A DNA stretch of 54,172 nucleotides from an uncultured bacterium. GTDB taxonomy: Bacteria; Fidelibacterota; Marinisomatia; Marinisomatales; UBA1611. A program made the position numbers and the translations under genes. The stretch spans positions 1-54,172 of the forward strand of contig CAYFIF010000001.1 of the NCBI GenBank assembly GCA_964343085.1, written 5' to 3'. This document shows, one piece after another, positions 3,484 to 37,753 of this stretch (its first letter is position 1; each line of letters starts with the position of its first letter). The notes under the pieces are model-generated. The model did no database searches. It was not told the DNA's origin and saw only the letters and a program-made list of their open reading frames with translations.

Positions 3484-3514
3484 AAATAATATATAATTCA
3501 AAACAGAAATTAAT

Positions 3515-5377: not shown

Positions 5378-5386
5378 GTTTTAACC

Positions 5387-8791: not shown

Positions 8792-8808
8792 TAAATTAAA
8801 TAAATATA

Positions 8809-10161: not shown

Positions 10162-10166
10162 ATTTT

Positions 10167-11531: not shown

Positions 11532-11533
11532 AG

Positions 11534-14093: not shown

Positions 14094-14096
14094 TTT

Positions 14097-15083
14097 TTAA
14101 TTACGTGTTCTTGGGTCTAGAAAAAGAATCAAAATATCTACGAACCAGTTTGCTGCTAAAATTGAAAAGGTTATTGTCATAAAAACGCCTTGCATAAGAG
14201 GGAAATCCTGTGATGTGACAGCCTGCAGCAATAAATATCCTTGCCCTGGATAGGAAAAAATCATTTCAGTCAATAGTGCTCCACTTAAAACGAATCCAAG
14301 CGCCATACCAAAGCCTGTGAAGTTTGGTAGAATAGCATTTCTTGCAGCATATCGAAACATTATAAGCCGGGATCGCAGACCTTTCGCTCTTGCAAAGGTT
14401 ATATAGTCTGCTCCTAATGTTGATATCATAGTATTTCTCATTGATAGCATCCAACCCCCTACGCTAACAAGGATCATGGTTAAGGCGGGTAGGGTGGCGT
14501 GATATAGTGCGCTAATGACAAACGAGAAACTGAAACTTGGGGATAGACTATCACTGTAGGCATGCCCTAGAGGAAACCACCCGAGCTTAAAACCAAAAAA
14601 ATAGAGTGATACCATAGCCAACCAAAAGTATGGAAAAGCACCTATGAAAGCCAGGGCAGGAGGTAAAATTGAATCTAATTTTCCTCCTCTGTTCCAGGCG
14701 ATTAGGGTTCCTAAAAAAGTACCTATAGCAAACGAAATTATTAATGAAGTCCCGGCCAAGAATATTGTCCAAAGCAGACCAGAAGCAATTACATTTGTAA
14801 CCGGCTCAGGAAAGTAAGCGATTGAAGTTCCAAGTTCACCTTGGAATATGCTTTTAAGATATGTCCAATATTGACCTATAAGCGGTTCATCTGTGAGGCC
14901 GAAAGTTTTCCTTAGTGAGTTCATTGCCTCAGGTTTTAATTTTCCTCTGAATCTGGCAAAGATGATTGATGCTGGATCACCAGGCATTAATCGCGGAATA
15001 AAAAAATTTAAGGTTACCGCAGCCCATGCTGCTAAAAGATAAAAACCAAGCCTCCGCAATAAATAATTAAATGATTGATTCAT
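14097..15083 (-). CDS. ABC transporter permease (OppB/DppB-like)
   Basis: 328 aa. It has a typical OppB N-terminus (YLLRRLGFYLL..FFIPRLMPGDP) and the motif ITFARAKGL. An ATGA overlap joins it to the binding-protein gene at 15080-15083. Confidence 0.9.
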   Translation of the reverse strand: MNQSFNYLLRRLGFYLLAAWAAVTLNFFIPRLMPGDPASIIFARFRGKLKPEAMNSLRKTFGLTDEPLIGQYWTYLKSIFQGELGTSIAYFPEPVTNVIASGLLWTIFLAGTSLIISFAIGTFLGTLIAWNRGGKLDSILPPALAFIGAFPYFWLAMVSLYFFGFKLGWFPLGHAYSDSLSPSFSFSFVISALYHATLPALTMILVSVGGWMLSMRNTMISTLGADYITFARAKGLRSRLIMFRYAARNAILPNFTGFGMALGFVLSGALLTEMIFSYPGQGYLLLQAVTSQDFPLMQGVFMTITFSILAANWFVDILILFLDPRTRN

Positions 15084-18025: not shown

Positions 18026-19054
18026 TTAGTCTAAAGTAGGAATTTCTGTACTTTTTCGTTTTAAAATCTTTACAGGAACCATACTTATATTGCCAACACT
18101 ATCATTTTCGTTTTCAACCATGTTTTCAATCATTTTAATCGCGCTGCTTCCTAAAAGAAAAAAATCAGTATATATTGATGTAAGCTCAGGAGTTATTATC
18201 TCCGAGAATGAAAGATTATCGTACCCAGCTATAATAAAATCTTCAGGCACTTTGTACCCGTTTTCTGTAGCTCCTTTAATAAATCCATAACATGTTTCAT
18301 CGTTACAGCCAAAAATAGCCACATCATTTAGATTGCGTTTCCTGAAGTCTTCAAATGCAACTTTACCGGTTGAGCTTGAAAAATCACCATCAAATGTCCA
18401 GACTAGTTTAAGTGATGGTTTCTCAGAGATATGGTCAAGGAAACCATTTTTTCTAAAAATTGCATCTATCGGCGGTTGCTTAAATGTGCCCTCTATTGGA
18501 CGCTTTGGGCCGGATATAAAACCAAAATTTTTATAGCCAAGCTCTTCGAAGTGTTTGGCTATCATATATCCGCCAGCGTAAGAGTCAAATGTGATTGTAT
18601 CAATTTTTGGATTTTTTATAGGAGTCAGTGTAACTATAGGATATTGGCCCACCCCATCCTTTATTTTTAAATAATCTTTATTGTCCAAGCTTGGAAGGAA
18701 AAGACAGATTCCTGTATACTTTTTGCTTAAGCTTATAATATACTCTATTGGATCTTCACTATGTTTTGCAAGGTTGATGATTACCACCTCAGAGGAAGTG
18801 TTTTTACTGGCTTTATAAAACCCATGCAAAAAATTTGCATAGAACTCTCCCCCAAAAAGCTCACTCACAAGGGCAATAGTTAGTTGACCCGAGTGTTTAT
18901 CTTTTCCTATAAATGGATAGCCAAGTCTGCGTGCTGATGCGTAGATTTTTTCTTCGTTCGAGGAATAGTTTCTTCGTTTGCGGCGAAGAGCTCTGGATAC
19001 AGTCGCGATGGACAGTCCGGTATCTTCGGATACGTGTTTAAGAGTTGTGCGCAA
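18026..19054 (-). CDS. LacI-family transcriptional regulator
   Basis: The N-terminal HTH is TLKHVSEDTGLSIATVSRALR, followed by a periplasmic-binding-fold sugar sensor domain. The start is a TTG at 19054-19052. It is the first gene of the minus-strand operon. Confidence 0.9.
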   Translation of the reverse strand: MRTTLKHVSEDTGLSIATVSRALRRKRRNYSSNEEKIYASARRLGYPFIGKDKHSGQLTIALVSELFGGEFYANFLHGFYKASKNTSSEVVIINLAKHSEDPIEYIISLSKKYTGICLFLPSLDNKDYLKIKDGVGQYPIVTLTPIKNPKIDTITFDSYAGGYMIAKHFEELGYKNFGFISGPKRPIEGTFKQPPIDAIFRKNGFLDHISEKPSLKLVWTFDGDFSSSTGKVAFEDFRKRNLNDVAIFGCNDETCYGFIKGATENGYKVPEDFIIAGYDNLSFSEIITPELTSIYTDFFLLGSSAIKMIENMVENENDSVGNISMVPVKILKRKSTEIPTLD

Positions 19055-19312: not shown

Positions 19313-22300
19313 ATGAGTAAACTGTTAAAATCATTAATGCTAATAATGTTGCCTGTTTTTTTAAATGGACAAATGATAAATAATTTTGATAGTGCGCCAG
19401 AGGAAGGATACTGGGGCTATGAAAGTTCTGAAAACTCAGATTCAACGCTTAGTAACGCGACTATCAGTTACATTCCATCTGGACCCGGAGTAGAGGGCGA
19501 CGGAGCTATGCAAATTGATTATAGTGTCCACAACAGTGAAGCATGGGGTGGTTATACCAAGATATTTCACATGGCTGGAGGAAATGATCCTGCTGGTGGA
19601 TCCTCTGTGGAGGGGACATGGATGCTAGCTGCTGAGGCCGGAGCAATGATGGTTGGGCCATCAGCTAATAGCGGTGAATGGTGGTCGAATTCAGTTGAAG
19701 ATGTTACAACAAGAGCATGTTTTTTTGATGATGAATATGTTTTCAACGCTGATGGTTCATTTCAAAATGTACAAGGTAGTGAGACTTGGTTAGAATCTTG
19801 GCAGGGTGTTGAAGCTGAACAATGTGGAGCTCCGGTTGCACCACATGATGGTTCAAATCCAGCCTCCTGGGCCTATGATGCTGCTACTGGCGCATTAACA
19901 CTTTCAGGTGTCGGGGCGTATCTTGGATTGCCGAAGGCTGTTAACGATGGAGAACTAAGCGCTGCAGAACCTCCTGCGGTTCCAGAAACAAGAACCTACA
20001 ACGCAACAGTTGTGGATGATACCATGAGGCTTGTTATTGAGTGCGGAACAGGATTGTTTTGGACTTTTAAGATGGTTGCGGTCGTTTCTACGCAAGAACT
20101 AGCAAGTTTATCTGATGATGTTCATTATTCGTTACTAGAGATTAGACCTACGGATGATGGTGTCTGGGACTGGTCGGGATATGATAGTATTTCTTTTTCA
20201 TACTATAATTCTATCCCTCAGGACTCTGCAGGTCGGGTGAACTTGAGGTTAAACTTGAGTGACTATGGTGATATTGCGGACCCTTCGAGCTACAATGGTC
20301 TAGGAGAGTATTACTATTCTTTTCTATATATTCTTGATAATGAACCAGGTTGGAATACTGTTACTATGCCACTTCTTCGTAATGATGACTGGGGTGGTGG
20401 TGGATTTAATCTTACTGGATGGGCTGGTGAAACAGGAAATGGTGAGCTTGACAAACATGCTATCGGGGGGTTCCATTTTGAATTTTCCGTAAGTGGTGGT
20501 GGAGATGGTGACCATGTAACTGGGACAATAGTGTTAGATGATTTTAGGTTAACTGGTTCACTCAATAAGTTGACAAACCCAGGGTTTGAGATTGAAGATG
20601 CGCAGGATGATGGAATGGGCTGGGGCTCAGCTATGGGTGGTGGACATGTGGATGTTTTAACTGATGCTTCAGTCGCACATAATGGTGATAATTACCTCAG
20701 CATTGGGGTTACAGATAATTGGGCTGTTTACTACACTGAGGACAGTATCCCTGCTCAATTTGGCGAGACCTGGCGTTTTAGTGGTTTTGGTAAAATGGTT
20801 CTAGGTGATACTACCGCTGGCGCAGCATTCAAGCTTGAGGCAAAGGATGTTGCGGGTACAATCCTTGGTACGACTGGGGATGTATTTCTTCAGTTAACGG
20901 AAGAGTGGGAGGAACACTCAATTGAGTTTGTGATGCCTGAAGGTACCCAAACATTGACAGCGGTTATTGTAGCGTCCCGGTGGGACGGTGTGGAAGTTGA
21001 TTACGCCTTTGACGATATGTTTCTAATGAGCATGGGGATTTTAGATGTCGTTCCACCTGCTCAGGTTGAAGATATCGGAGCTGTTCCCGCATCATACTAT
21101 AATTTGGTGACATGGGCTGATGTTTCTGGAGAAGATGGTGAAACATACAATGTTTATGCAAGTACATCGCCAATTACAGATATAACTGATCCTTCAGTAG
21201 ATGTCGTTGCAACAAACGTATTAGAAGGTAGTCAGGCTGCGGTACACTATCTATTTAATCCATTAGTGGATGCCAATGTTAGTTATTACTATGCTGTAGT
21301 ATGCAAAGATGCATCTAATAACGTTGGTCCTGCAGGCATGTCAGAGGTCTCGGTCCCTAACAATGCCAAAGGTGTTCCAACTGTTTCTCTTGAGCCGCCA
21401 ACAGCGTTTGCTGCTGATGGGGATTTATCAGAGTGGTATGATAGTGGGATTACGCCATTTATGGTTGGTGCAACAGAAAATTCTTATGGAACGCCTCATC
21501 TAGGTTTTGGAACGGTGGATAGCGATAATGATTTGCATGGAACATTTTACCTGGCTGTTGATAATGAATATCTATATATAGCGGCTGAAATATTAGATGA
21601 TGTTGTTGTCGATGATCAGGCTAATGGATGGTGGACCTCTGATGTTGTTCAGATCTGCATTGGGCTGTATGACCAGCGTGGACCAAAGCATGTAGGAATG
21701 GAAAGAGGTGAGGAACCTGACTATAAGATGTATTTTACTCCGGCTAGTGCTAATTCTGACAATGGCGCAGGGGTTTTAGCAGAGCATGGTGATGGTAACT
21801 ACTACTACGAAACTTTTAATCCGGACTATGTTTTTGAGTTTCGTATTTCACTAGATGATATCCTTATAGATGATGATGCTAGACTGACTCCATTAAATGG
21901 AATGCGAACACCTTTTGAGCCGATGATCCATGACAATGATGGTTCAGGTTGGGAGGGCCTTTTGGTATTGTCACCAATCAATAACGATAATGCGCATCAG
22001 ACCTGCGAGGTGTGGTCGAGCACATGGATCGGTGATCAGGCGACAACGATGAGCACGGGTAGTGATATTGTTTTAAATGAGTTTGCTTTACATCAGAACT
22101 ATCCCAACCCATTTAATCCAAAGACTACAATAAGGTTTTCTATTCCCGAGTTTCAGCTTGTTAATCTTTCGGTGTATAATATGCTTGGTCAGCAGGTGAT
22201 AACTCTCATAGATAAAGAACTTTCAGCTGGTTATCATGTTGCAAACTGGAACGCAGGAAATATTGCTTCCGGTATCTACATCTATAAATTAACATCTAAG

Positions 22301-22339
22301 GGTAAAACGCTTACCCAGAAAATGGTACTAATGAAGTAG
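19313..22339 (+). CDS. Secreted multi-domain putative glycan-binding protein (CBM4/9-like, FN3-like and CBM9/DOMON-like modules) with a T9SS C-terminal domain
   Basis: It has a signal peptide. Module motifs are LTNPGFEIEDAQDDGMGWG (CBM4_9-like), NLVTWADVSGEDGETYNVYAS..YYYAVV (FN3-like) and DGDLSEWYD..FYLAVDNEYLYIAAEILDD (CBM9-like). The C-terminus reads YPNPFNPKTTIRFSIPE..GIYIYKL. No catalytic motif was seen. The gene has its own SD and terminator. Confidence 0.6.
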   Translation: MSKLLKSLMLIMLPVFLNGQMINNFDSAPEEGYWGYESSENSDSTLSNATISYIPSGPGVEGDGAMQIDYSVHNSEAWGGYTKIFHMAGGNDPAGGSSVEGTWMLAAEAGAMMVGPSANSGEWWSNSVEDVTTRACFFDDEYVFNADGSFQNVQGSETWLESWQGVEAEQCGAPVAPHDGSNPASWAYDAATGALTLSGVGAYLGLPKAVNDGELSAAEPPAVPETRTYNATVVDDTMRLVIECGTGLFWTFKMVAVVSTQELASLSDDVHYSLLEIRPTDDGVWDWSGYDSISFSYYNSIPQDSAGRVNLRLNLSDYGDIADPSSYNGLGEYYYSFLYILDNEPGWNTVTMPLLRNDDWGGGGFNLTGWAGETGNGELDKHAIGGFHFEFSVSGGGDGDHVTGTIVLDDFRLTGSLNKLTNPGFEIEDAQDDGMGWGSAMGGGHVDVLTDASVAHNGDNYLSIGVTDNWAVYYTEDSIPAQFGETWRFSGFGKMVLGDTTAGAAFKLEAKDVAGTILGTTGDVFLQLTEEWEEHSIEFVMPEGTQTLTAVIVASRWDGVEVDYAFDDMFLMSMGILDVVPPAQVEDIGAVPASYYNLVTWADVSGEDGETYNVYASTSPITDITDPSVDVVATNVLEGSQAAVHYLFNPLVDANVSYYYAVVCKDASNNVGPAGMSEVSVPNNAKGVPTVSLEPPTAFAADGDLSEWYDSGITPFMVGATENSYGTPHLGFGTVDSDNDLHGTFYLAVDNEYLYIAAEILDDVVVDDQANGWWTSDVVQICIGLYDQRGPKHVGMERGEEPDYKMYFTPASANSDNGAGVLAEHGDGNYYYETFNPDYVFEFRISLDDILIDDDARLTPLNGMRTPFEPMIHDNDGSGWEGLLVLSPINNDNAHQTCEVWSSTWIGDQATTMSTGSDIVLNEFALHQNYPNPFNPKTTIRFSIPEFQLVNLSVYNMLGQQVITLIDKELSAGYHVANWNAGNIASGIYIYKLTSKGKTLTQKMVLMK

Positions 22340-22452: not shown

Positions 22453-25233
22453 ATGATAAAACGCTTGGCCCTTATTTTGATGCTTTCTTTTTCTTTTTCT
22501 CAGACAACGGGAAAGGTTTCAGGCGTTGTTTTAGAAAAAGAAAAATTAGGACCGCTTCCTGGGGCAAATATTTATCTTTTAAACACTCCTTACGGTGCCG
22601 CTTCCGATATTGAGGGAAGATTTACAATTATCAATATACCTCCTGGGAAATACACACTCAAAGTTGATATGATAGGTTACAAATCAGTTCAGCTGGATGA
22701 GCTTATTGTTTCTGTAAATAGGACAAGCTCGCTTGATATTGAGATGGAGTCAACTGTAATCGAGGGTGAGGTGGTTACTGTTGAGGTATCTAGGCTGGCT
22801 CAGAAGAAGGACCAAACTGGAACCATTAAAAATATTTCAGGTGAAGAGATTCAGGCACTTGCTGTCGAAAATATTGGTAGCGTTATTAACATGCAGGCCG
22901 GAGTGGTTAACGGACACTTTCGTGGTGGTAGAAATACGGAAGTGACCTACATGGTTGACGGTGTCCAGGTAGATGAATCTTTTGGTGGCGGAAGCGCAGC
23001 TGTTGACATCCAGCCAGAGGCCGTACAAGATCTAGAAGTGATAACAGGAACATTCAATGCCGAGTATGGACGAGCTATGAGTGGTGTTGTTAACATGGTG
23101 ACAAGAGATGGAGGGCCTAGGTTTGAGGGGTCGATTTCTGTGGCTTCGTCGTCCTATTTCACCAATAGTTTAGATGGTAATGGTGATACTATTTTTGTAG
23201 GACTAAATCCCAATCTTAATCGTAGTGAGGATCTAAAATTTAGTTTTGGTGGCCCAATATGGGGTGAGAAGATCACCTTTTTTACTAACCTGCGTAAGCA
23301 GAACAATAGAGGTCACCTCAATGGCATTAGAAGATACAAGCCATATGATGTTAGTGATTTTACATCAGATGATCCTGATGATTGGTGGTCAACTCAATCA
23401 GGAGACAGTTCTTATGTGCCGATGAATACGGGAGATAATTTTTCTTCACTACTCAAGCTTGGGTTTAACATTTTCAAAGGGATACGATTTTCTATTTTAA
23501 ACTCCTACAGCGATGATACCTGGTATTGGTATGACCATTCGATGAAATATAACCCAGATGGGAGAGCAGGAAATCATAAGAAGACTTATTACTCTGCTTT
23601 TCAATTAAATCACATGATTACTCCGAAGTTTTTTTATGAGCTCAAGCTAGCCTATATGGAAAATAATACAGGGACATACCTCCACCAAGATCCAATGGCT
23701 TATATCATTGCTGATGGTTCTAACTATGATCAATTATTCAACTATTTTGGAACCAATATACCAATCTATCATGATGGTTTACCTCATGAGGTGGGTGACA
23801 CTGTTTATCTGTATATCCATGATAGACATCTTGAAAATTATGGATCCGGCTTTTTTACGGGTGGTCAGCAGAAGGAACACACGAAGCACAGAGACATCGA
23901 TAAGACATTGAAGTTTGATCTAACCTGGCAGGCAAATCACAGTCACAATTTAAAACTAGGGGTTATGGGTATTACTCATGATGTAAAACATAAGTGGCGA
24001 CAGATAAGAAATAAATATGATGGACAGTCAAATGTTGATTATTGGGTTTATGAGCCAGAAGTTTTTCCTGACTCTACTGTGTATGCTGACATTTATAATG
24101 TTAGGCCAATAGAGGCCGCTGCTTACCTGCAAGACAAAATGGAATTTGAAAATATGGTCATTAATTTTGGAGTAAGATATGACTATTTTGACCCCGTAAG
24201 TTATTATCCCTCTGATAGACGAAATCCTGCTAATCAGTTAGTGCTTCCAGATTCGATGATGTCTGAATACATGGATGCGCCTATTATTGATCAGGTAAGT
24301 CCACGTATAGGGTTTGCCTACCAGCTCGGTAATCAAGCTGTACTACACTTTAGCTATGGTCACTTTTTTCAAATGCCACCGCTTTATTCTATGTATCAAA
24401 ACAAAAGTTTTTTGGTTGCTCCAAGCGATTATTCTACCACTATGGGGAATGTTCTTCTAGAACCAGAAAAGACAATCACCTATGAGATTGGTTTATGGCA
24501 AGAGCTAGCAAGAGGCCTGAATCTCGATGTCGCATTATTTTATCGAGATATATATAACCTGCTTAGTACAAAAATTATTTCTACATATAACCAGATTGAG
24601 TATGGTCTCTATAGCAACAAGGACTATGGGAATGCAAGAGGCTTAGAGGTTACCCTGGATCTGGGTTATGGATCGATCAAGGGTATGATCAACTATACCC
24701 TACAGTATACGAGGGGAAATGCGGATAACCCAACTCAGACCTTTACCCGAGCTGGGAATAATATGGATCCCGTGAATCGTTTTATACCTATGAGTTGGGA
24801 CCAGAGACATACACTAAATGGTACTCTGATGTACCTTGGACCACAATATGGTGCTACAATTACGGCATACTATAATTCGGGATCTCCATATACCTTTTCT
24901 CCCCAGAGCGAGAGTGTATTATCTAGGATTAATTTGTATCCAAACAATGATTATAAGCCCTCTAACTATACTGTTGACGCAACATTATATTATAGGTTCA
25001 AGCTTTTCGGCAGGTATAATGGTAATCTAGACCTCACTATTTACAACTTATTAGATAGACTAAATGAGTATGGCGTAAATAGTGAAACAGGTAGAGCATA
25101 TACAGCTGTTATAAGGGAGACAGATTATGCAGGTCATCGCAGCGATTTTAATGAATTTGAAGATAGAATAAAAAATCCATCAATGTTTTCAGCTCCGAGG
25201 ATGGTAAAACTTGCTCTAGGTGTTAACTTTTAA
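22453..25233 (+). CDS. TonB-dependent outer-membrane receptor (CarboxypepD_reg-like domain + plug + beta-barrel), SusC-like but with no SusD partner
   Basis: It has a signal peptide. The CarbopepD_reg-like region is GKVSGVVLE..GANIYL..SDIEGRFTIINIPPGKYTLKV. The plug region is ISGEEIQALAVENIGSVINMQAGVV..TYMVDGVQV. The 926-aa protein ends in ..LALGVNF, with the aromatic terminus typical of OMPs. Confidence 0.9.
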   Translation: MIKRLALILMLSFSFSQTTGKVSGVVLEKEKLGPLPGANIYLLNTPYGAASDIEGRFTIINIPPGKYTLKVDMIGYKSVQLDELIVSVNRTSSLDIEMESTVIEGEVVTVEVSRLAQKKDQTGTIKNISGEEIQALAVENIGSVINMQAGVVNGHFRGGRNTEVTYMVDGVQVDESFGGGSAAVDIQPEAVQDLEVITGTFNAEYGRAMSGVVNMVTRDGGPRFEGSISVASSSYFTNSLDGNGDTIFVGLNPNLNRSEDLKFSFGGPIWGEKITFFTNLRKQNNRGHLNGIRRYKPYDVSDFTSDDPDDWWSTQSGDSSYVPMNTGDNFSSLLKLGFNIFKGIRFSILNSYSDDTWYWYDHSMKYNPDGRAGNHKKTYYSAFQLNHMITPKFFYELKLAYMENNTGTYLHQDPMAYIIADGSNYDQLFNYFGTNIPIYHDGLPHEVGDTVYLYIHDRHLENYGSGFFTGGQQKEHTKHRDIDKTLKFDLTWQANHSHNLKLGVMGITHDVKHKWRQIRNKYDGQSNVDYWVYEPEVFPDSTVYADIYNVRPIEAAAYLQDKMEFENMVINFGVRYDYFDPVSYYPSDRRNPANQLVLPDSMMSEYMDAPIIDQVSPRIGFAYQLGNQAVLHFSYGHFFQMPPLYSMYQNKSFLVAPSDYSTTMGNVLLEPEKTITYEIGLWQELARGLNLDVALFYRDIYNLLSTKIISTYNQIEYGLYSNKDYGNARGLEVTLDLGYGSIKGMINYTLQYTRGNADNPTQTFTRAGNNMDPVNRFIPMSWDQRHTLNGTLMYLGPQYGATITAYYNSGSPYTFSPQSESVLSRINLYPNNDYKPSNYTVDATLYYRFKLFGRYNGNLDLTIYNLLDRLNEYGVNSETGRAYTAVIRETDYAGHRSDFNEFEDRIKNPSMFSAPRMVKLALGVNF

Positions 25234-28200
25234 TGTTGAATAAGATTTTAGTTAAGCTACTGATCTGCTTTTTTCTTCCTTTGCATCTTCTTTTTTCTCA
25301 GGGCAAAGAGTACCAAGGTCCAGAGGATCCAGCGGGTGATATTGCTGCTGAGAAAGAGGGCTACATGACAGGAAATAGAGTCTATATTTACTTTAGAAAT
25401 ACAACCGAGCTCTCCGACTGGCCAAGGGTAAATGTATCTAAATGGCCAAACAATCCTAATGGTTTGAAAATGACTGATGGTATTGGTCTACTTGTTGGAG
25501 CAAAGGTATATATTGAAGATGACGGAGATGCTGGGACAGTAGACACTATACCTATAACTGATCCATTAGACCTTTTCAACCCAAATAAAGAGCGTCACAC
25601 TCTATACTATCTACAAACTAGCTACAGGGAGGAAATGGACCTTGATCCTACTGGTACAGTAGAGTGGGGTTTTTACCCTGCGTTTGGTTATTTTAATGAG
25701 ACGGGTGAGTATCCTGCGCTATCCAATATACCAGGATCTTGGCCTTTAAACGGCTGGCCATCCACTGGATTTGAAACAAAATGGATCGGTGAGTGGAACG
25801 GACGCTTTGGTAGGGGGGTTACTTATGCTGATCAGGAGTCTTATTATGTTGTTAATGATGCACAAGACCAAGAAAACCTAGGCAGCGAAGATAATGTCAG
25901 GTACTATCCAAGGCCAGGTCGCTATATAGGAGACTTGAAACCAGATGTCACCGTACAACCAGGAGCCCCTTGGGGTGGTCTTGGTCTTAGGGTATCAGTC
26001 AGAGGGTTTCAGTGGAACAACCCTCAGGCAAGGGATGCAATATTTTGGGAGTATTCTGTTGCTAATATTTCAGACTATGATCTGAGGGATGTCGCCTTTG
26101 GTTATTGGCTTGATAATTCTATCGGTGGAGATGGTGATGATGATCTTGGATACTTTAATAAGCAGATAGATATGGCCTATTCTTGGGATATTAATGGGAT
26201 CGGAGCAGGTGGACTCCCAACGGGCGTCATGGGTTTTGCTTATTTAGAAAGCCCCGGGTTGGCCTATGACTATCGTGATAACGATAATGATGGTCTGGTT
26301 GATGAAAAAAGAGATAATGAAGCCACGGCCATTATAGGTGCAACTGAAGGAATAACAGATCTGAACGCATTTTTAGAGTTTTATAAACTGAATGTTGAGG
26401 ATCTCAAAGATCATTGGGATGCGGATGAAGATCAAGACTGGCAAGATGGTGAAGATCTAAATGGTGACGGGATATATCAGCTATCAGAAAACTATGGTGA
26501 TGATATAGGTATCGACGGAGTCGGACCCGGAGAGTTAAACTATAACGGTCCAGACTTAGACGGCTCGGAGTGTAACCACAAGCCAGATTTTTTAGAGGGC
26601 GTGGGTTGTGAGCCTAACTTCAACACAACAGATGTATCAGAGTCTGATATGGTTGGTCTAACAGCATTTCGTATGTTTCCTATACCTAGTCACGCTCCCT
26701 CCAATGAAACAACCTGGTTTAAGAATGATCAGGCAATGTGGGGGGTTATAGGTGTGGACTCACTTGAGGAGTACGTTGACAATGTATCTAATTTGGTTGA
26801 GGTATTCGCATCAGGTCCATTTCCTCTTTATCAGGGGAGGGTTGAGAGAATTTCAATGTCAGAACTTCATTCATATGATCCGCTGGAGGGACTCAGCTCG
26901 GAAAATCACACTGCACCTGCTTTATATGAGTTAAAGAGGATTGTTCAGGTTATATATGAAAAAGACTATCGTTTTGCACAGCCACCAGAGATGCCAACAA
27001 TTACCGCAACAGCTGGTGATAATAAGGTAATTCTAACTTGGGATGATATAGCGGATACAAAGACGCGAGATCCTTTTGTCGGTAATATCAATGATTTTGA
27101 GGGATATAAAATCTACAGATCTACGGACAAATACTTGTCCGATCCTGAAATTATTACTGATGGTTATGGAACGCCAATGTTTAAGAAACCGATATATCAG
27201 TGTGATCTTGATGACGGGATAAATGGATTCACTGATTTTGGTTTGGTTAATGGTATGGGATACAACCTGGGAACTGATACGGGTATATCTCATATTTTTG
27301 TAGATAATACGGTCCAAAATGGTAGAACCTATTACTACGCTGTTGTTGCCTATGACTTTGGTGCCCCTGATATTGGTCCCGGCATTGCACCCTCAGAAAA
27401 TAACGCAGTCATAGAGCTTGATGAAGCTGAGGAGGTACGTTCAGTTGGGAAAAATGTTGCCGTTGTTGTTCCTCACCAGCGTGCCGCTGGTTATATACCT
27501 CCTTCACTGGATATATTGGAGTCGAATTTGTTTGGATCTGGATTGGTGAACCCTTTGATCCGTGCTCAGGGAAGTCTCAAGCAGGGGCATGAATACGCTC
27601 TTACTTTTTTAGCCGATACTATTGAAGAGATAAGTGGGTATGAATACGGTTTTCAGTATGTCACAAATGGTTTGAAAATCTATGATTTGACTGATAGTAC
27701 TGTACTAGTTTATTCGGAGGACACGTCGAAATATATTGGCCAGAATCTAGTCTATCGCGACACATCAGATTTCTGGACTTTGAACCCTGAACAAAAAATA
27801 TATACCGATGTTTTTGATGGTCTGCAGGTTGAAATTGACCCAGATGTAGAAGTTCCGGAGTATAGTATTAATAGTTCAAAATGGATCAATGGTTACGGAA
27901 ATATGAGAATAACCCCAACGGTTGAGGAGGCACTTAAACTTGCTTGGAAATATCATATTGTTTTTACGGATAATGATTCTGCCTATGTCGGGATAGCCAG
28001 ATCAGGCACAGTAAGAGATGAAAATGGGAACTCAATAGGTTTAAAAAAAATAAATCAGCCTGCCATAAATTTTTATGTTCAGAATACCTCATTTATTGAT
28101 ACATCAACCGGACAGTTTCCGATTATGGATGTTGTTGCTCATGATGTAAATGAGAATGGCATCTTTGAGATTGCTCTAGATAGAATCTTTGTCGGCGCCA

Positions 28201-28703
28201 CAGTAGGTAGCAGGTGGAGAGCTACTGCGTTTATTATTGATTTTCAACTTGATTCTGCCTTGGATTATCCTGAAGCGGGTGATGTTTTTCAGGTGGACTG
28301 GAGGCGACCTTTTTTTAATACAGATACAATTAGGTTTACAGTTAAGAAAGAGACTGAGTTAGACATAGATAGTGTTAAGATAGATATGGATAGTATTAAA
28401 GTAGTTCCGAATCCATATGTTATGACCAATATGATGGAGTCAGCCGTTGCCAATCAGTTTTTAAATCAGCGTAGACGTATAATGTTTACTCATATACCTT
28501 CTGATTGCAGAATCAAAATTTTTACAGTAAGCGGTGTTTTGGTTGATGAGATTGTTGTAAATAATAAACCCGAAAATGGAATAATTCATTGGGATATGTT
28601 AACAAGAGAGAATTTAGAAATAGCCGCTGGAATGTATATATACCATATAGATTCAATTGAAACAGGTAAAGAAAAAGTTGGAAAATTTGCGGTAATTAAA
28701 TGA
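25233..28703 (+). CDS. 1156-aa secreted protein of unknown function with acidic Ca-binding-like repeats, an FN3-like module and a divergent T9SS-CTD-like C-terminus
   Basis: Its start overlaps the receptor stop (TAATG). It has a signal peptide (LHLLFSQG). Acidic repeats are DNDNDGLVDEKRDN and DADEDQDWQDGEDLNGDGI (about 26270-26540). The FN3-like module reads GDNKVILTWDD..FEGYKIYRS..GRTYYYAVVAYD. The C-terminus reads IKVVPNPYV..RIKIFTVSGVLVDE..GMYIYHI..GKFAVIK. I found no recognisable catalytic signature. Confidence 0.5.
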   Translation: MLNKILVKLLICFFLPLHLLFSQGKEYQGPEDPAGDIAAEKEGYMTGNRVYIYFRNTTELSDWPRVNVSKWPNNPNGLKMTDGIGLLVGAKVYIEDDGDAGTVDTIPITDPLDLFNPNKERHTLYYLQTSYREEMDLDPTGTVEWGFYPAFGYFNETGEYPALSNIPGSWPLNGWPSTGFETKWIGEWNGRFGRGVTYADQESYYVVNDAQDQENLGSEDNVRYYPRPGRYIGDLKPDVTVQPGAPWGGLGLRVSVRGFQWNNPQARDAIFWEYSVANISDYDLRDVAFGYWLDNSIGGDGDDDLGYFNKQIDMAYSWDINGIGAGGLPTGVMGFAYLESPGLAYDYRDNDNDGLVDEKRDNEATAIIGATEGITDLNAFLEFYKLNVEDLKDHWDADEDQDWQDGEDLNGDGIYQLSENYGDDIGIDGVGPGELNYNGPDLDGSECNHKPDFLEGVGCEPNFNTTDVSESDMVGLTAFRMFPIPSHAPSNETTWFKNDQAMWGVIGVDSLEEYVDNVSNLVEVFASGPFPLYQGRVERISMSELHSYDPLEGLSSENHTAPALYELKRIVQVIYEKDYRFAQPPEMPTITATAGDNKVILTWDDIADTKTRDPFVGNINDFEGYKIYRSTDKYLSDPEIITDGYGTPMFKKPIYQCDLDDGINGFTDFGLVNGMGYNLGTDTGISHIFVDNTVQNGRTYYYAVVAYDFGAPDIGPGIAPSENNAVIELDEAEEVRSVGKNVAVVVPHQRAAGYIPPSLDILESNLFGSGLVNPLIRAQGSLKQGHEYALTFLADTIEEISGYEYGFQYVTNGLKIYDLTDSTVLVYSEDTSKYIGQNLVYRDTSDFWTLNPEQKIYTDVFDGLQVEIDPDVEVPEYSINSSKWINGYGNMRITPTVEEALKLAWKYHIVFTDNDSAYVGIARSGTVRDENGNSIGLKKINQPAINFYVQNTSFIDTSTGQFPIMDVVAHDVNENGIFEIALDRIFVGATVGSRWRATAFIIDFQLDSALDYPEAGDVFQVDWRRPFFNTDTIRFTVKKETELDIDSVKIDMDSIKVVPNPYVMTNMMESAVANQFLNQRRRIMFTHIPSDCRIKIFTVSGVLVDEIVVNNKPENGIIHWDMLTRENLEIAAGMYIYHIDSIETGKEKVGKFAVIK

Positions 28704-29770
28704 AAAATAATTTTGTAACAATAATAACGGTTTTTACTTTTTCCTTTTTAAATATTCTGTGTGGTCAGACGATAAATCGTTACGGCACAACCGCTGCTAA
28801 TTTTTTAGAGATTGGTGTTGGTAGCGAGGCAAATGCAATGGGTGAGGCCTATGTTGCTGTAGCGAATGATGTTTCTTCGATATACTGGAACCCGGCTGGA
28901 CTATCTAGCCTAAAAAAATCTTCAGCTCTCTTTATGATTCAGCCTTGGTTTGTGGATATAGATATGTTGTTTGCAGGCGGTGCTATGGTAATTCCCAAAG
29001 TTGGAGTCATAGGATTAGGTATTACTCACCTAGATTATGGTGAAATGGAGGTAACAAACCTAGAGTACCAAGATGGCACCGGTGAAATGTTTCGGGCGTC
29101 TGATGTTGCTGCTTCGTTTACTTTTTCAAGAAAAATTGTCTCCTGGTTTTCATTCGGATCATCGCTAAAATATATTAACTCAAATATATGGCACAGTTCA
29201 GCAAGTGCTTTTGCTGTTGATCTTGGAGTATTAGTAAACACAAGTTTTTTTTCATTTACTGGTAATAATAAAGATGGAATTAATATAGGTATGAGTATCT
29301 CTAATTATGGTACCAGAATGAAATATGATGGGATCGATAGTTATCAGCCTATTGATATTTCAGAGTACGAAGAAGGAAACTATGGTGATGTAGCTGGGCA
29401 ATTTAGGACCTCGGAATGGGAGTTGCCTCTTATATTTAGAATAGGTGTCTCTCTAAAGCCAATAGTGACAAATAAGATGGATCTTATTATTTCCGCTGAT
29501 GCTCTTCATCCTAATAATAATGCTGAATCTATTAATATTGGAGCCTCTTTAGATAATAAGATTCCTGGATTTGGTGAAGTAAGTATTAGGGGAGGTTTAA
29601 AAAGTGGTATGAAAAATTTAAATACTGATGATAAAGATTTTGGGTTTGCGACTGGAGCCGGGCTGAAGCTCTATTTTCTAAACAATAAGGCACTGACCAT
29701 TGACTATACTTACAAGACCATGGGAATTTTGGGCAATGTCCAGGCCTATACTGTAGGTATTGCATTTTAG
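28700..29770 (+). CDS. PorV/PorQ-family outer-membrane beta-barrel (T9SS-associated)
   Basis: An ATGA overlap joins it to the upstream gene. It has a signal peptide. The N-terminal signature GTTAANFLEIGVGSEANAMGEAYVAVANDVSSIYWNPAGL matches my recollection of PorV/PorQ family proteins. The C-terminus is ..YTVGIAF. Confidence 0.7.
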   Translation: MKNNFVTIITVFTFSFLNILCGQTINRYGTTAANFLEIGVGSEANAMGEAYVAVANDVSSIYWNPAGLSSLKKSSALFMIQPWFVDIDMLFAGGAMVIPKVGVIGLGITHLDYGEMEVTNLEYQDGTGEMFRASDVAASFTFSRKIVSWFSFGSSLKYINSNIWHSSASAFAVDLGVLVNTSFFSFTGNNKDGINIGMSISNYGTRMKYDGIDSYQPIDISEYEEGNYGDVAGQFRTSEWELPLIFRIGVSLKPIVTNKMDLIISADALHPNNNAESINIGASLDNKIPGFGEVSIRGGLKSGMKNLNTDDKDFGFATGAGLKLYFLNNKALTIDYTYKTMGILGNVQAYTVGIAF

Positions 29771-29779
29771 TGATGAATA

Positions 29780-31255
29780 ATGGGGTTTTTATATCGCTTA
29801 GTTATACTTTTTTTTTTCTTTATTAGTTGTACAAAGCATTCTCAAATACCAGAAGAAATTATTCTTGCGAAGATTGGTCCTAGTATAATTACGATACAGG
29901 ATTTTATCAGAAGATCGGAATACACAATACGCCCAGATTATTGTAAGCAAGATAATTATATACACAAAAAAATAATTTTAAACTCACTAATTAGTGAAAA
30001 ATTAACTGCTTTAGAGTTTGATAAAGGCATAAGCCAGGTCAATGATGAGTATCTAGAGCACTTTTTAAATGGTCGTAAAGAACAGGTTATGCGCCAGCTT
30101 TATTTTTCAGAAGAGTTTTACTCTAAAGTAAAATTATCAGAAAAAGAAATAAAAGATGCTCTCAGATTTTCTGGTAGAAAAATCACTGTCAAATTTTTAA
30201 ATCTTCCAGACCTGGATTTAGTGGAAAAAATAAAGGAGCTAGACTCTGCGAATATAGCGCTGGATTCTATCCATAGTGTTCTTTGGGGTGGAAATGCACC
30301 TACTAAAGAATTTGATTGGTTTAATCGTGAAGTTGATGAAATACATGATGCCTTATTTAACGAAAATATTTTTAAAGGTATGTTGTTAGGACCGTTTGAA
30401 AGTGAGGAAGGTACATTTATTTTGATGAAAATTGTTAGTTGGAAAGATCAGATAAAGATCACAGAATACGATAAAAATCTTTTATGGAAGGATGTTAAAG
30501 AAAAGCTTACCGATAAAAAAGCAAAAAAAGCTTACCTTGAATCAATAAAAGATTTAATGAGTGGGAAAAAGATGAATCTAAATTCTGATGTTTTTTATAG
30601 ATACGCTGAAAAAGCCGCTGATTATTTTTTTAAAGTACACGAATCCAAGAAAAAAATGTTAAACCAGGTACTCTGGGATGATAATCAGATTGAGGATAAT
30701 ATGTTTACCTTTGATGTTAAAGATAATGATATCGACCCTGGCTCTATAATTCTAGACTACGGTGGTGAGTCTTGGACAGTTGGGGAATTAAATCAGCATT
30801 TAAAATCTCATCCTTTTGTGTTTAGAAAACGGAAAATGAATCGCAGCGAATTTCCGAAACAATTACGACTCGCTATTGCAGACCTTATCCGGGATATAGA
30901 GATTACAAAAGAGTGCTATAAAAGGGGGCTTGATAAAAATTGGAGCGTTAGTCTAAACTATAATATGTGGCAGGATGTATCCAAAAGCAAAAAATATGTA
31001 TCTAGTTTAAGGCTAAAGAATAAACAAATTGATAGTCAGGATGAGTGGTTGGCGTTTATGAACCCTTTGATAGATTCTCTCCAGAACATATACTCTGATA
31101 AGATAAAAATTAATATGGAGGTGTTTGAAAAGGTTGAACTCACTAAGACGGATATGATGGTCACTCAAAGGGGAGTTCCTTATCCTATTTTAGTGCCTTC
31201 CTTTCCAATCTTAACAACAGATGATAGATTAGATTTTGGAAGTAAGATAAAGTGA
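29780..31255 (+). CDS. SurA/PpiD-like periplasmic chaperone lipoprotein (degenerate parvulin-like region); function uncertain
   Basis: It has a lipobox (FFISCTK). ILAKIGPSIITIQDFIRR resembles a SurA_N start. GMLLGPFESEEGTFILMKIV resembles the end of a parvulin domain. The protein is Lys-rich and starts 9 nt after the PorV-like gene. Confidence 0.35.
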   Translation: MGFLYRLVILFFFFISCTKHSQIPEEIILAKIGPSIITIQDFIRRSEYTIRPDYCKQDNYIHKKIILNSLISEKLTALEFDKGISQVNDEYLEHFLNGRKEQVMRQLYFSEEFYSKVKLSEKEIKDALRFSGRKITVKFLNLPDLDLVEKIKELDSANIALDSIHSVLWGGNAPTKEFDWFNREVDEIHDALFNENIFKGMLLGPFESEEGTFILMKIVSWKDQIKITEYDKNLLWKDVKEKLTDKKAKKAYLESIKDLMSGKKMNLNSDVFYRYAEKAADYFFKVHESKKKMLNQVLWDDNQIEDNMFTFDVKDNDIDPGSIILDYGGESWTVGELNQHLKSHPFVFRKRKMNRSEFPKQLRLAIADLIRDIEITKECYKRGLDKNWSVSLNYNMWQDVSKSKKYVSSLRLKNKQIDSQDEWLAFMNPLIDSLQNIYSDKIKINMEVFEKVELTKTDMMVTQRGVPYPILVPSFPILTTDDRLDFGSKIK

Positions 31256-31363: not shown

Positions 31364-32446
31364 ATGAACAAAAAATATTTTTTCAAAAATATAATCATAG
31401 CTCTTACTCTAGTATCTGTTGTTTTTTGTAAACCATATAAAGGTGGAGAATTAAGGACAGATGACACATACCGCTATGGCAGGTTCGAAGTAAGAATGAA
31501 GTCTGCTTATGGTAATGGTGTGGTTAGTTCATTCTTCACTTATCGAGATTTTTGGGAAGAGGGGCACACAAGTAATAGCTACTGGAATGAGATTGATTTT
31601 GAGTGGTTGGGTAATTATGATGATAAAGTCCAGACCAACCTTATCATACAAAATGCTTGGGATCTTCCAGAGTTGGTGGACTTGGGTGTTAGCCCGCATG
31701 AATCCTTTCACACGTACGCAATCGAGTGGACTCCCTCAGATGTTAAGTTTTTCATAGAGGATCAGTTGATAAGGATTGTTAATAATTTTTATGCTGATTC
31801 GTTATACCATTATCAAAAACTTATGATGAATATTTGGCAACCTATTTATGATGACTGGGTCGGGGATTTTAATCCAAGTATTTTACCTGTCTATGCTTTT
31901 TATGATTGGGTAAAATACTATGCGTACGTGCCAAACTCTGGTAATGCAGGAACGGATAATAATTTTATATTATTTTGGGAAGATGAATTCGACTTTTATG
32001 ATACATCACGCTGGTCCAAAGCCAACCACACCTGGGATGGTAATAATTCAGATCTTATTTATAGTAATGTCGTTTTTGAGTCAGGCTATCTTATTCTGTG
32101 TTTAACGACTCCACAGGACACAGGCTACAATGGAGACCCTCTTTCGATTAATGCTCAAGAAATACCATCTAAGGTATCTTTAGGCAGTCCCTATCCGAAT
32201 CCATTTAACCATAATATTACCTTACCTGTCTTCTTGTCAGAATCTGGGATAATCTCTTTTTCAATATATGATATAAAAGGCAAACAAATTAAATCCAAAG
32301 AACATCAGTTTTTAGATAGTGGGGAAAATAATATTTTTTGGAATGGTTCAGATAGAAGCGGTAAACAAGTATCCTCTGGAACTTATTATTTGCACATTCA
32401 GAATGAAGGCCGCTCTCAGGTAGAAGAAATCCTTTTTTTGAAATAG
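31364..32446 (+). CDS. GH16 beta-glucanase of the lichenase/endo-1,3(4)-type with a T9SS C-terminal domain
   Basis: YRYGRFEVRMKSA..GVVSSFFTY..WNEIDFEWLG carries the E-x-D-x-E catalytic motif and closely resembles the Bacillus lichenase pattern. The C-terminus is YPNPFNHNITLPV..GTYYLHI. Confidence 0.85.
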   Translation: MNKKYFFKNIIIALTLVSVVFCKPYKGGELRTDDTYRYGRFEVRMKSAYGNGVVSSFFTYRDFWEEGHTSNSYWNEIDFEWLGNYDDKVQTNLIIQNAWDLPELVDLGVSPHESFHTYAIEWTPSDVKFFIEDQLIRIVNNFYADSLYHYQKLMMNIWQPIYDDWVGDFNPSILPVYAFYDWVKYYAYVPNSGNAGTDNNFILFWEDEFDFYDTSRWSKANHTWDGNNSDLIYSNVVFESGYLILCLTTPQDTGYNGDPLSINAQEIPSKVSLGSPYPNPFNHNITLPVFLSESGIISFSIYDIKGKQIKSKEHQFLDSGENNIFWNGSDRSGKQVSSGTYYLHIQNEGRSQVEEILFLK

Positions 32447-32476
32447 TTTTTGGCTAGACAGAGTAATAAGGTTTTA

Positions 32477-33682
32477 ATGATTGATTTTTTAATAGTAATG
32501 ATTTTTTCATTTTCAATTTTCGGATGTCAAAAGGAGGAGGAAAGACCAGGTGATAGTGATTTAAATTTATTAGAAAATGATGACTGGGATTTGGTATGGT
32601 CAGATGAATTTGATGGAAATGAGTTAGATATCTCCAAGTGGAATAAACTAAGATGGCGACCTGGTTGGGTTAACAACGAGTTGCAGGCTTATACAGATAG
32701 AGACACAAATATTTTCCTTAAAGATGGATACCTAGTTTTACAGGGCCTAGTTGAGCCTGGTTATTTTGGGACTGACTATACGGGCTTTGATTATAGTTCA
32801 GACTATACCTCTGGTAGAATTAATACCGATGATAAAGTATCAAGGACATATGGTCGTTTTGATGTAAGTGCTAAACTTCCCAAGGGTAATGGATCCTGGC
32901 CTGCAATATGGATGCTCGGAGAGAGTATATCAACAGTTGGTTGGCCAGACTGTGGAGAGATTGATATTATGGAACATGTTGGATTTGATGATGGAATGAT
33001 CCATGGTTCGATTCATACTGGGGAATATAACCACATGAATAATACCCAAAAATCTGGTGCCAAATTTTTATCAACAGCTACAGACTCTTTCCACGTTTAT
33101 TCGTTGGAGTGGAGTCCTCACTATCTACGCTATCTCATAGACAACCAGCCTTATTTTTTTGTGTATAATGATAGTGATGGTGACACCGGAAAATGGCCGT
33201 TTGATGAACCCCATTACATTATTTTAAATCTTGCGATTGGTGGAGATTGGGGCGGTGCTCAAGGCATCTCTCCCAGTGCCTTTCCTATGAAGATGTTAGT
33301 AGATTATGTTAGAGTCTTTAAAAAGTCTGATGCTTATAAAGATGTTAGTGTAACTTTTAAGGTAGATATGAAAAATCAAAATGTTTCAGAGACCGGTGTC
33401 TGGCTATCAGGGGGGAATATTAGTTCTGGTCAGCCAGGTGGAATTCAGATGAATCAATCAGTAGATTCAAGTATTTGGGAAATCACTCTGACCCTTCCTC
33501 CTCATTCTAGTTATACTTACAAATTCAGAAATGGATATTTCCCAAATTCATGGCAAGGTGGCTGGGAGGTCATAGAAGGTGATTGCGGTGTTGGGCAATA
33601 TAATGATAGATCACTTACTGTTAGTGGAATGGATACTTTGCTTGCATCTGTTTGTTTTGGAGAGTGTACAGCATGCGATTAG
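32477..33682 (+). CDS. GH16 laminarinase lipoprotein with a C-terminal beta-sandwich CBM-like module
   Basis: Likely start is ATG 32477 (MIDFLIVMIFSFSIFGC lipobox); the track start at 32450 is a TTG. The catalytic motif is CGEIDIMEH, with WPFDEPHYIILNLAIGGDWGG downstream. The C-terminal module reads VTFKVDM..IWEITLTLPP..YTYKFRNG. Confidence 0.9.
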   Translation: MIDFLIVMIFSFSIFGCQKEEERPGDSDLNLLENDDWDLVWSDEFDGNELDISKWNKLRWRPGWVNNELQAYTDRDTNIFLKDGYLVLQGLVEPGYFGTDYTGFDYSSDYTSGRINTDDKVSRTYGRFDVSAKLPKGNGSWPAIWMLGESISTVGWPDCGEIDIMEHVGFDDGMIHGSIHTGEYNHMNNTQKSGAKFLSTATDSFHVYSLEWSPHYLRYLIDNQPYFFVYNDSDGDTGKWPFDEPHYIILNLAIGGDWGGAQGISPSAFPMKMLVDYVRVFKKSDAYKDVSVTFKVDMKNQNVSETGVWLSGGNISSGQPGGIQMNQSVDSSIWEITLTLPPHSSYTYKFRNGYFPNSWQGGWEVIEGDCGVGQYNDRSLTVSGMDTLLASVCFGECTACD

Positions 33683-37718: not shown

Positions 37719-37753
37719 TAATTATTCACCAATCGCTTATTAAATTACGGTTA

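Follow-up and report, generated by a model that had tools for sequence, protein, structure and literature searches.

What does a large, probably secreted protein of no curated family do when its gene is wedged between an outer-membrane transporter and a PorV-like barrel? This question is raised by an open reading frame (ORF) at 25233..28703 (+) of contig CAYFIF010000001.1 from an uncultured Marinimicrobia (SAR406) bacterium, of which positions 1 to 54,172 were analysed (hereafter the window). The ORF is real, has an ATG start and encodes 1156 amino acids (aa). The gene, referred to here as the target, is the middle member of a cassette of TonB-dependent receptor, target and PorV-like barrel that is conserved across several phyla of the Fibrobacterota-Chlorobiota-Bacteroidota (FCB) group. 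The answer that we favour, by a modest measure, is that the protein serves at the cell surface as an accessory subunit of a cassette for TonB-dependent import of glycans, situated here in a laminarin locus.

The two partners lie on either side of the target gene with overlapping start and stop codons, as read from the sequence. Upstream, at 22453..25233 (+), is a TonB-dependent receptor of 926 aa, in which an N-terminal CarboxypepD_reg-like domain is followed by plug and 22-strand-type barrel, each above its Pfam cut-off, and its TAA stop overlaps the ATG of the target. SusC/RagA models were not among the 12 NCBIfam matches at E<=0.1. Downstream, the TGA stop of the target overlaps the ATG of a PorV/PorQ-family outer-membrane barrel of 356 aa (28700..29770, +), which matches NF033709 with 199.5 bits (cut-off 90; E 1e-58) over profile positions 1-326 of 326. 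This barrel scores under the equivalog cut-offs of both PorV (NF033710, 88.5 versus 250) and PorQ (NF033711, 90.9 versus 220), and by these scores it is judged to be a distinct branch of the family, neither PorV nor PorQ. It matches the PorV chain 6h3i_F with E 1.5e-7 and has a weak FadL/Toluene_X match in Pfam, and no PorP/SprF model of Pfam or NCBIfam matched it.

The arrangement was followed through 80 loci from species-level genomes, picked by similarity to the laminarin-locus member. The receptor is directly upstream and on the same strand in 60 of the 63 loci with enough sequence, and the PorV-like gene is directly downstream in 61/68. Four loci hold the same cassette genes in another order and three are missing partners. 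The cassette loci are labelled Neomarinimicrobiota, KSB1, Calditrichota, Ignavibacteriota, Rhodothermales and Eisenbacteria, and close relatives share the gene order of the window. The number of family genes per locus also varies. Locus L010 (KSB1, 282-12263) has three consecutive full-length family genes followed by one PorV-like gene, with no receptor in the available sequence, and at L063 (622-10250) two family genes are followed by the receptor and then the barrel; moreover, two genome assemblies provide two loci each. Such multi-copy and tandem paralogy resembles that of SusD and the surface glycan-binding families and is unlike that of single-copy secretion machinery.

The 35 kb surrounding the cassette constitute a beta-1,3-glucan (laminarin) locus. 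The operon is headed by a type IX secretion system (T9SS) cargo of 1008 aa (19313..22339, +) which in domain searches carries the carbohydrate-binding modules (CBMs) CBM4_9 and CBM9 and a canonical C-terminal domain (CTD); a homologue of this CBM-bearing cargo is often found upstream of the cassette in other loci. A LacI-family regulator is transcribed divergently from it (18026..19054, -). Downstream, at 31364..35643 (+), domain searches identified a family 16 glycoside hydrolase (GH16) with a CTD, a further GH16 and a GH5 with CBM6/35 and a CTD. The minus strand encodes a GH149 beta-1,3-glucan phosphorylase of 1134 aa (5387-8791) without a Pfam match, assigned by NF058639 above its cut-off with 1425 bits, and GH30, GH1, an Opp-type ATP-binding cassette (ABC) importer and a family-5 solute-binding protein (8809-16738, domain search), in addition to a PA14-GH16 and a further GH5. 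The glycan context of the window includes three GH16, two GH5, GH30, GH1 and GH149. It may be added that the GH149 enzyme together with GH30, GH1, the ABC importer and the solute-binding protein completes a phosphorolytic laminarin pathway.

A glycan context is also found in the related loci, whose flanks hold GH16, GH9, GH94, GH3, GH92, GH95, malectin and CBM9 domains. GH16 occurs within 8 kb in 26/82 loci, across all identity levels, and LacI homologues are present in 16 related loci. In the distant loci the flanks abound in canonical T9SS cargo (many Por_Secre_tail proteins) and also hold LacI regulators, sugar-binding proteins and chaperones of the peptidyl-prolyl isomerase (PPIase) type. 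In locus L083 of Rosettibacter firmus, at 1085382-1108471 of contig JAYKGJ010000001.1 (GCA_036860695.1), a sodium:solute symporter (SSF) precedes the CBM9 cargo, after which come the receptor, the family member and the PorV-family barrel, and the barrel is followed by a ROK kinase, three GH3 and a GH5. We consider it probable that the target cooperates with the adjacent transporter in taking up glycans.

The first-pass annotation had described the target as an orphan, a description that is refuted by the large family recovered in homologue searches. With the target as query, a word-indexed search yielded 1,534 proteins at E<=1e-3, of which the best 120 were full-length with 73-100% identity, the named ones among them being called 'hypothetical' and the named organisms being Marinimicrobia/Neomarinimicrobiota. 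An exhaustive search of representatives at 50% identity gave 3,227 clusters at E<=1e-3, of which 421 also reached E<=1e-30, with full-length relatives detectable down to about 30% identity. At least 559 genomic stretches encoding a relative were confirmed in a scan of one genome per species, and their taxon labels include those of the cassette loci, with Melioribacteraceae given beside Ignavibacteriota. The family can be aligned over its full length in A1, an alignment of 21 diverse members. Cultured carriers are Rosettibacter firmus and Melioribacteraceae bacterium 4301-Me.

In another respect the earlier view of the protein, as belonging to an uncurated family of surface or secreted proteins, agrees with what was found, since members are 'hypothetical' in every source and no Pfam or NCBIfam model spans the family. 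Ten distant members retrieved by exact look-up were all annotated merely as 'hypothetical protein'. No Pfam family matches the target at E<=0.1, a PDB sequence search with the target found no relative, and a Pfam scan of the 21 diverse relatives gave just faint CTD-type matches. Paralogy of the target with the ORF at 5387-8791 (-), also large and at first unassigned, was considered and rejected, as BLASTP found no similarity between the two. A 94-aa antisense ORF inside the target gene (27033-27317, -) is most likely spurious.

How, then, would the protein reach the cell surface? A Sec signal peptide is predicted at aa 1-22 (25233..25298, +), with a predicted helix at aa 2-21. Gln23 (25299-25301), right after the predicted cleavage site, is kept in at least 90% of A1. 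In Bacteroidetes the 'Q-rule' describes an N-terminal Gln, which becomes pyroglutamate, after cleavage by signal peptidase I, and Gln23 is consistent with it. The signal is of the signal peptidase I type, without a conserved lipobox Cys in A1. Since five proteins with canonical CTDs are encoded within the 54-kb window, the T9SS is present in the source organism, and the target itself is probably exported by this system.

The latter view depends on the C-terminal end, in which the first-pass annotation had recognised a CTD-like sequence starting with VVPNPYV. This recognition was sound, in that the last 115 residues align with four canonical T9SS CTDs of the window. The domain, a variant of the type-A CTD at aa 1055-1156 (28395..28700, +), is supported by hhalign, NCBIfam and the family profile. 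Profile-profile comparison by hhalign of the family CTD (A5) with the canonical CTDs of the window (A6) gave 95% probability and E 4e-8, which makes the domain a true homologue of type-A CTDs. The target carries the CTD motifs VVPNPY, AAGMYIYHI and KFAVIK, and identity to the query is about 0.5 in the last 80 residues. The models of the canonical domain respond weakly: TIGR04183 (Por_Secre_tail, type-A sorting domain) scores 13.4 bits with the target, below its cut-off of 23 (E 0.057), and PF18962 (Por_Secre_tail) has no match in the target at E<=0.1 and weak ones in 2/21 relatives. The C-terminal matches in NCBIfam are to PorZ (NF052228, 3e-5) and PorU (NF033707, 0.003). Likewise, the family profile run against PDB sequences found the CTDs of PorU (0.002) and PorZ (0.0074), and apart from these just a marginal match to 3mpc.

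The variant character of the CTD lies in a family-specific insert of about 15-17 residues at approximately aa 1063-1080 (28419..28472, +), which the alignments place between the PNPY motif and the next canonical strand. An extra segment of some 25 aa had been noticed here before; the segment is real, but it is shorter than was thought, as the 24-residue string in question takes in the next canonical strand, RRIMFTH. The insert is present in all 21 members of A1 with an invariant Glu (E1069), and in a second set of 23 C-termini from other genomes it is again present with the Glu kept in at least 90%. It is absent from the five canonical CTDs of the window. In the full-length AlphaFold2 model aa 1061-1079 have a predicted local distance difference test (pLDDT) below 50 and form the sole long low-confidence stretch besides the signal peptide. 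A separate observation on the CTD is that at least 90% of relatives share Cys1092 (28506-28508; LPxxCTIRIF); the mature PorV-like protein offers no Cys with which it could pair.

PorU and PorZ are known to keep their CTDs and to sit on PorV and PorQ, respectively (PMC10202324). The suggestion, made from the sequence at the outset, that the target CTD might likewise stay bound to a PorV-type barrel gains strong circumstantial support because a dedicated PorV/PorQ-family gene directly follows the target, overlapping its stop codon, and occupies this place in the 61 of 68 loci mentioned above. Retention of the CTD on the cognate barrel is the weakest link of our reading, and we consider the chances for and against it to be about equal. 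A different account, which we find rather unlikely, is that the target is ordinary T9SS cargo whose CTD is cleaved by PorU, so that it ends up as a released or lipopolysaccharide-attached glycan-binding protein, and that the barrel is a dedicated secretion shuttle, comparable to PorP/SprF, or a FadL-type transporter. Type-B CTD cargo has its own PorP/SprF barrel encoded next door, as in SprB-SprF of Flavobacterium johnsoniae, and this barrel is thought to handle just the adjacent cargo (PMC10202324); a barrel gene beside a cargo gene is thus an arrangement already known from secretion, and the weak FadL/Toluene_X match, the three cargo genes per single barrel gene at L010 and the homology of the CTD core to canonical cleaved CTDs all fit this account, as does a conservation of the target CTD that barely exceeds that of canonical ones. 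What it leaves unaccounted for is the insert with its invariant Glu, which an ordinary CTD can dispense with, as the five canonical CTDs of the window do. Furthermore, the canonical cargo of the same operon has no private barrel, and both the gene order and the translational coupling of the target with transporter and barrel are maintained across phyla.

The likeness to PorZ and PorU raises another possibility, namely that the target belongs to the T9SS attachment machinery as a PorZ- or PorU-like protein seated on a PorQ- or PorV-like barrel, in phyla without the Porphyromonas versions. PorZ was indeed the top Foldseek match of the full-length model (E 8e-8) with PorU also listed, the CTD matches both in sequence, 1156 aa is near the size of PorU, and the gene adjoins one of the PorV/PorQ family. 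These structural matches are, however, limited to the CTD and to generic beta domains (TM <0.15), and the equivalog scores of the target are far under the cut-offs (PorZ 22.6 versus 260; PorU 15.2 versus 420). A conserved Cys/His dyad is also missing, as A1 has no invariant His and its sole near-invariant Cys, C1092, is in the CTD. Since the gene is moreover found in paralogous and tandem copies tied to a TonB-dependent receptor and glycoside hydrolases, this explanation is the least probable of those considered here.

The full-length AlphaFold2 model (pLDDT 80; predicted template modelling score, pTM, 0.65) is nearly all beta. Because Foldseek with this model was uninformative on the N-terminal domain, aa 24-585 (25302..26987, +) were modelled separately from 60 sequences, yielding a single compact domain with pLDDT 92.5 and pTM 0.93. 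It is predicted to be a beta-supersandwich that includes the Trp/Gly/Pro-rich strands. The Trp/Gly/Pro-rich strings reported for this region were located at aa 168-195 (GSWPLNGWPS...GRFGRG) and aa 243-263 (PGAPWGGLGLRVSVRGFQWNN). The N-terminal 580 aa have a mean pairwise identity of 47%, compared with 28% for the variable region discussed below, and the blocks within aa 160-480 have an identity to the query of 0.3-0.5.

Searched against the PDB with Foldseek, aa 24-585 gave weak matches only (E 1e-4 to 1e-3; query-normalised TM-score, TMq, <=0.32; sequence identity 6-10%), and against viral structures nothing at E<=0.001. The weak neighbours are GH116, GH94, the phosphorylase domains of cyclic-glucan synthase, GH63, dextran dextrinase and the polysaccharide lyase PL26. 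As the model is almost free of helices, the part shared with these proteins is read as their non-catalytic N-terminal beta-supersandwich and not the (alpha/alpha)6 barrel. The best neighbour, weak as it is, is thus the N-terminal beta-sandwich of GH116, GH94 and GH63/GH15-type enzymes; the GH116/GH94/GH63-type enzymes have a catalytic (alpha/alpha)6 barrel which the target family is without, whereas a 120-residue insertion of acidic loops is found in the target family only. The confident model accordingly depicts aa 24-585 as a beta-supersandwich that would have neither an (alpha/alpha)6 domain nor any other catalytic domain.

Absence of a recognisable catalytic signature had been noted from the sequence, and the empty Pfam (E<=0.1) and PDB sequence searches agree with this. 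Confident membership of a glycoside hydrolase, lyase or peptidase family, which would have refuted the first-pass view, was sought at the level of sequence, profile and fold and was not found; there are just the weak matches that we read as being to non-catalytic sandwich domains. These results bear on the idea that the target is a new enzyme which attacks beta-glucans or other glycans at the cell surface and belongs to a family outside CAZy, in which the invariant Asp and Glu residues would make up a Ca2+-dependent active site. That ten invariant acidic residues cluster within aa 349-472, that the nearest structural neighbours of the N-terminal domain (GH116, GH94, GH63, dextran dextrinase and PL26) are all carbohydrate-active and that the gene sits in glycan loci can be cited for a new enzyme. 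Nevertheless, we regard it as improbable: the neighbours are matched in a sandwich read as non-catalytic and no (alpha/alpha)6 or other catalytic domain is predicted, no sequence match in Pfam, NCBIfam or PDB leads to a catalytic family, the acidic motifs are metal loops of the DxDxDG type and not a paired acid and nucleophile, and the locus already has a full set of secreted and periplasmic glucanases.

The acidic loops form a cluster within the N-terminal domain at aa 349-472 (26277..26648, +), as delimited by alignment and model. The motifs are DNDNDGLVDE, DEDQDW..DLNGDG, DDIGIDGVGPG and EPNFNTTDVSESD, and those placed by position are DNDNDGLVDE at aa 349-358, DADEDQDWQDGEDLNGDGI at aa 396-414 and GDDIGIDGVGPG at aa 422-433. 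The first-pass annotation had described a cluster of D-x-D-x-D-G loops in this region; the loops are there (nt 26277-26531), but D-x-D-x-D-G does not hold as their general type, for there is one exact motif (aa 349) and one near match, DLNGDG (aa 408). As the remaining loops differ in pattern, they are not repeats of a single unit. A resemblance to modules of the thrombospondin type 3 or dockerin kind was not borne out either, as neither TSP_3 (PF02412) nor dockerin (PF00404) of Pfam matched the target or 20 relatives; the generic DxDxDG loop pattern is all that these modules have in common with the target.

Conservation of this cluster, like that of the CTD insert, goes beyond chance. In the alignment of 60 sequences the residues G249, R257, D349, D351, D353, E358, D424 and G426 are invariant, as are D428, G429, E460, D467, E470 and D472, and thus 12 invariant residues, 10 of them acidic, lie within aa 349-472 in relatives down to 24% identity. 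The loops are modelled with pLDDT of about 90-96 despite having almost no secondary structure. From the DxDxDG pattern they are presumed to be Ca2+ sites. A large, acidic, all-beta protein with loops of the Ca2+ type might also be a surface adhesin or an S-layer-like coat protein, with no part in uptake and linked to the transporter by co-transcription only, and Foldseek did list weak matches to adhesin and S-layer structures. A tight linkage to a TonB-dependent receptor and glycan-degrading genes that spans phyla is unexpected for a coat protein, and we consider such a role very unlikely.

Between the N-terminal domain and the CTD two further regions can be distinguished. The FN3-like module that had been read from the sequence is supported at aa 585-745 (26985..27467, +), where it contains a long internal insertion; the evidence consists of DSSP strands, of FN3 arrays matched in Foldseek at E 1e-5 by the full-length model, with low TM since the model is multi-domain, and of the family profile, whose marginal PDB match 3mpc (E 0.19) is a 'Fn3-like protein'. 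FN3 and Ig arrays dominate the Foldseek matches of the full-length model, at TM <0.15, and there is no Pfam fn3 match in the target. Motifs of the module conserved in A1 are PPxPxLTA..GDGKVTLxWD, DFEGYKIYRS and NGRTYYYAVVAYD, and identity to the query per block is 0.4-0.55 over aa 560-720. A variable beta-rich region follows at aa 746-1040 (27468..28352, +; per-block conservation and DSSP strands) and is the least conserved part of the family, with an identity to the query of about 0.21 over aa 760-1040. The region is a candidate specificity module or spacer.

These elements can be combined into a sequence of events. The protein would cross the inner membrane by way of Sec and its signal peptide, and the outer membrane by way of the T9SS with the CTD as recognition signal. 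In ordinary cargo the CTD is cleaved and the protein attached to lipopolysaccharide; the target CTD, a variant with some 16 inserted residues, would instead stay uncleaved and dock on the PorV/PorQ-family barrel encoded by the next gene, in the manner of PorZ on PorQ and PorU on PorV. The beta-supersandwich with its Ca2+-stabilised loops, the FN3-like module and the variable domain would thereby come to lie beside or over the transporter encoded by the preceding gene. There they may capture oligosaccharides freed by the co-encoded, T9SS-secreted GH16 and GH5 enzymes or hand them over, a task which in Bacteroidia falls to SusD and to the surface glycan-binding lipoproteins. On this reading target, transporter and barrel would form a physical complex, and the question of whether the target itself binds glycan we see as evenly poised.

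Several observations weigh against this reading. The likeness of aa 24-585 to the N-terminal domains of carbohydrate-active enzymes is weak (TMq <=0.32), and the domains that they resemble are not classical binding modules. The glycan context is biased towards beta-glucan by the picking of loci on similarity to a member from a laminarin locus. One of the three loci that are missing partners, L081, was without either of them when searched with hidden Markov models built from 63 barrels and 60 receptors; given this locus and the three copies with one barrel at L010, a 1:1:1 stoichiometry is not strict. With regard to retention, the mean pairwise identity of the family CTD is 52% compared with 44.5% for an ordinary CTD of the same loci; since this is barely higher, CTD conservation is no argument for retention and was dropped as such. 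Similarly, the PorU C-terminus is matched (E 1.3e-4) by one of the window's ordinary CTDs as well, so that the matches to PorU and PorZ are not specific to retained CTDs and lose weight as evidence of retention. Finally, what the data show directly is the gene with its family and domain layout, the homology of the CTD, the PorV-family membership of the neighbour, the order of the three genes and the glycan genes around them, whereas T9SS export, CTD retention and the binding of the target to glycan, transporter or barrel are inferred.

The gene that follows the barrel was considered as a member of the unit. It encodes a 491-aa protein (29780..31255, +) with a lipoprotein-like N-terminus (..FFFISC) and a SurA_N_2 match below cut-off (E 0.033). 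As a candidate SusD analogue it was rejected, with no SusD or PDB match, and since it moreover accompanies the cassette in closer relatives only, a subset of the loci, it was left out of the core unit. In its place PPIase (Rotamase_2) is found in 9/68 flanking ORFs of more distant loci, which suggests that a chaperone travels with the cassette.

Other parts of the window are at a greater remove from the cassette. An alpha-glucan module at 35700-40099 follows the beta-glucan genes and consists of a CBM48/GH13 protein (-) and a GH13 with a CBM of the AMP-activated protein kinase type (+). The ORFs at 1-3483 (-) and 40023-42422 (+) encode large CotH-kinase-like proteins, both of which have lamin-tail domains and a T9SS CTD. 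The former ORF is cut by the left end of the window; for the latter the annotated start is probably wrong, because the ORF overlaps the end of the GH13 ORF (40099) by 77 nt. A MerR-type regulator with a B12-binding domain, of the light- or cobalamin-sensing type, is found at 53250-54131 (+) near a glutathione peroxidase and a DUF6580 protein, and has no relation to the glycan genes.

Marinimicrobia, Calditrichota, Ignavibacteriota and KSB1 are abundant, and they degrade organic matter. How these four groups take up glycans has hardly been described, and full-text literature searches brought up no account of it. The family described here has thousands of members, always labelled 'hypothetical', whose genes accompany those of a TonB-dependent transporter and of a PorV-like barrel in glycan loci; it may supply the surface partner that has been missing. 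One may speculate that FCB bacteria outside Bacteroidia, the abundant marine clade SAR406 included, import polysaccharides by a hitherto undescribed three-part outer-membrane machine of transporter, T9SS-exported protein and private barrel, in which a beta-supersandwich protein of about 1100 residues replaces SusD and is held by an uncleaved, insert-bearing CTD; for this wider proposal as a whole we put the chances at somewhat below even. If it is true, docking of a T9SS CTD on a barrel would be a general principle of surface anchoring for nutrient uptake, beyond the secretion machinery. Provided that the anchoring holds, PorV-family barrels and retained T9SS CTDs would gain a role in nutrient capture, and the three genes would serve as a marker for polysaccharide utilisation loci outside Bacteroidia. 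The cultured carriers make the model testable.

The cassette was not found described in the full-text literature, where an earlier description is possible since most subscription journals were outside coverage, and the genome papers of Melioribacter roseus and Caldithrix abyssi make no mention of it. TonB-dependent glycan loci and pairs of T9SS CTD and barrel are both already known, and the cassette is a variant of both. With SusC/SusD (RagA/RagB) it shares a transporter with a CarboxypepD_reg-like domain directly before the gene of a large surface partner, a partner gene that occurs in paralogous copies, and a regulated locus in which some glycoside hydrolases are secreted and others periplasmic. 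SusD is a helical lipoprotein of tetratricopeptide repeats, whereas the target is all-beta, has no lipobox and no SusD match in Pfam, and carries a T9SS CTD in place of the lipid anchor. The unit also differs from SusC/SusD in its third gene, the PorV/PorQ-family barrel, and its transporter differs from SusC in being unmatched by the NCBIfam SusC/RagA models at E<=0.1.

With the PorZ-PorQ and PorU-PorV pairs of the Porphyromonas gingivalis attachment complex the target shares the combination of a T9SS-exported protein, export being inferred for the target, with a 14-strand barrel of the PorV/PorQ family. The CTDs of PorU and PorZ are the sole PDB sequence matches of the family CTD. Anchoring by an uncleaved CTD is established for PorZ and PorU (PMC10202324) and is a proposal only for the target. 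In contrast to both, the target has unrelated passenger domains, without beta-propellers or a C25 peptidase domain, its CTD has the conserved insert of about 16 residues, and its gene is multi-copy and located in nutrient-uptake loci, not with the secretion machinery. In having a cargo gene beside that of its own outer-membrane barrel the cassette also resembles type-B CTD cargo with PorP/SprF; it differs from these in that the target CTD, by its hhalign match to type-A CTDs, is a type-A variant, and in that the barrel is of the PorV/PorQ family.

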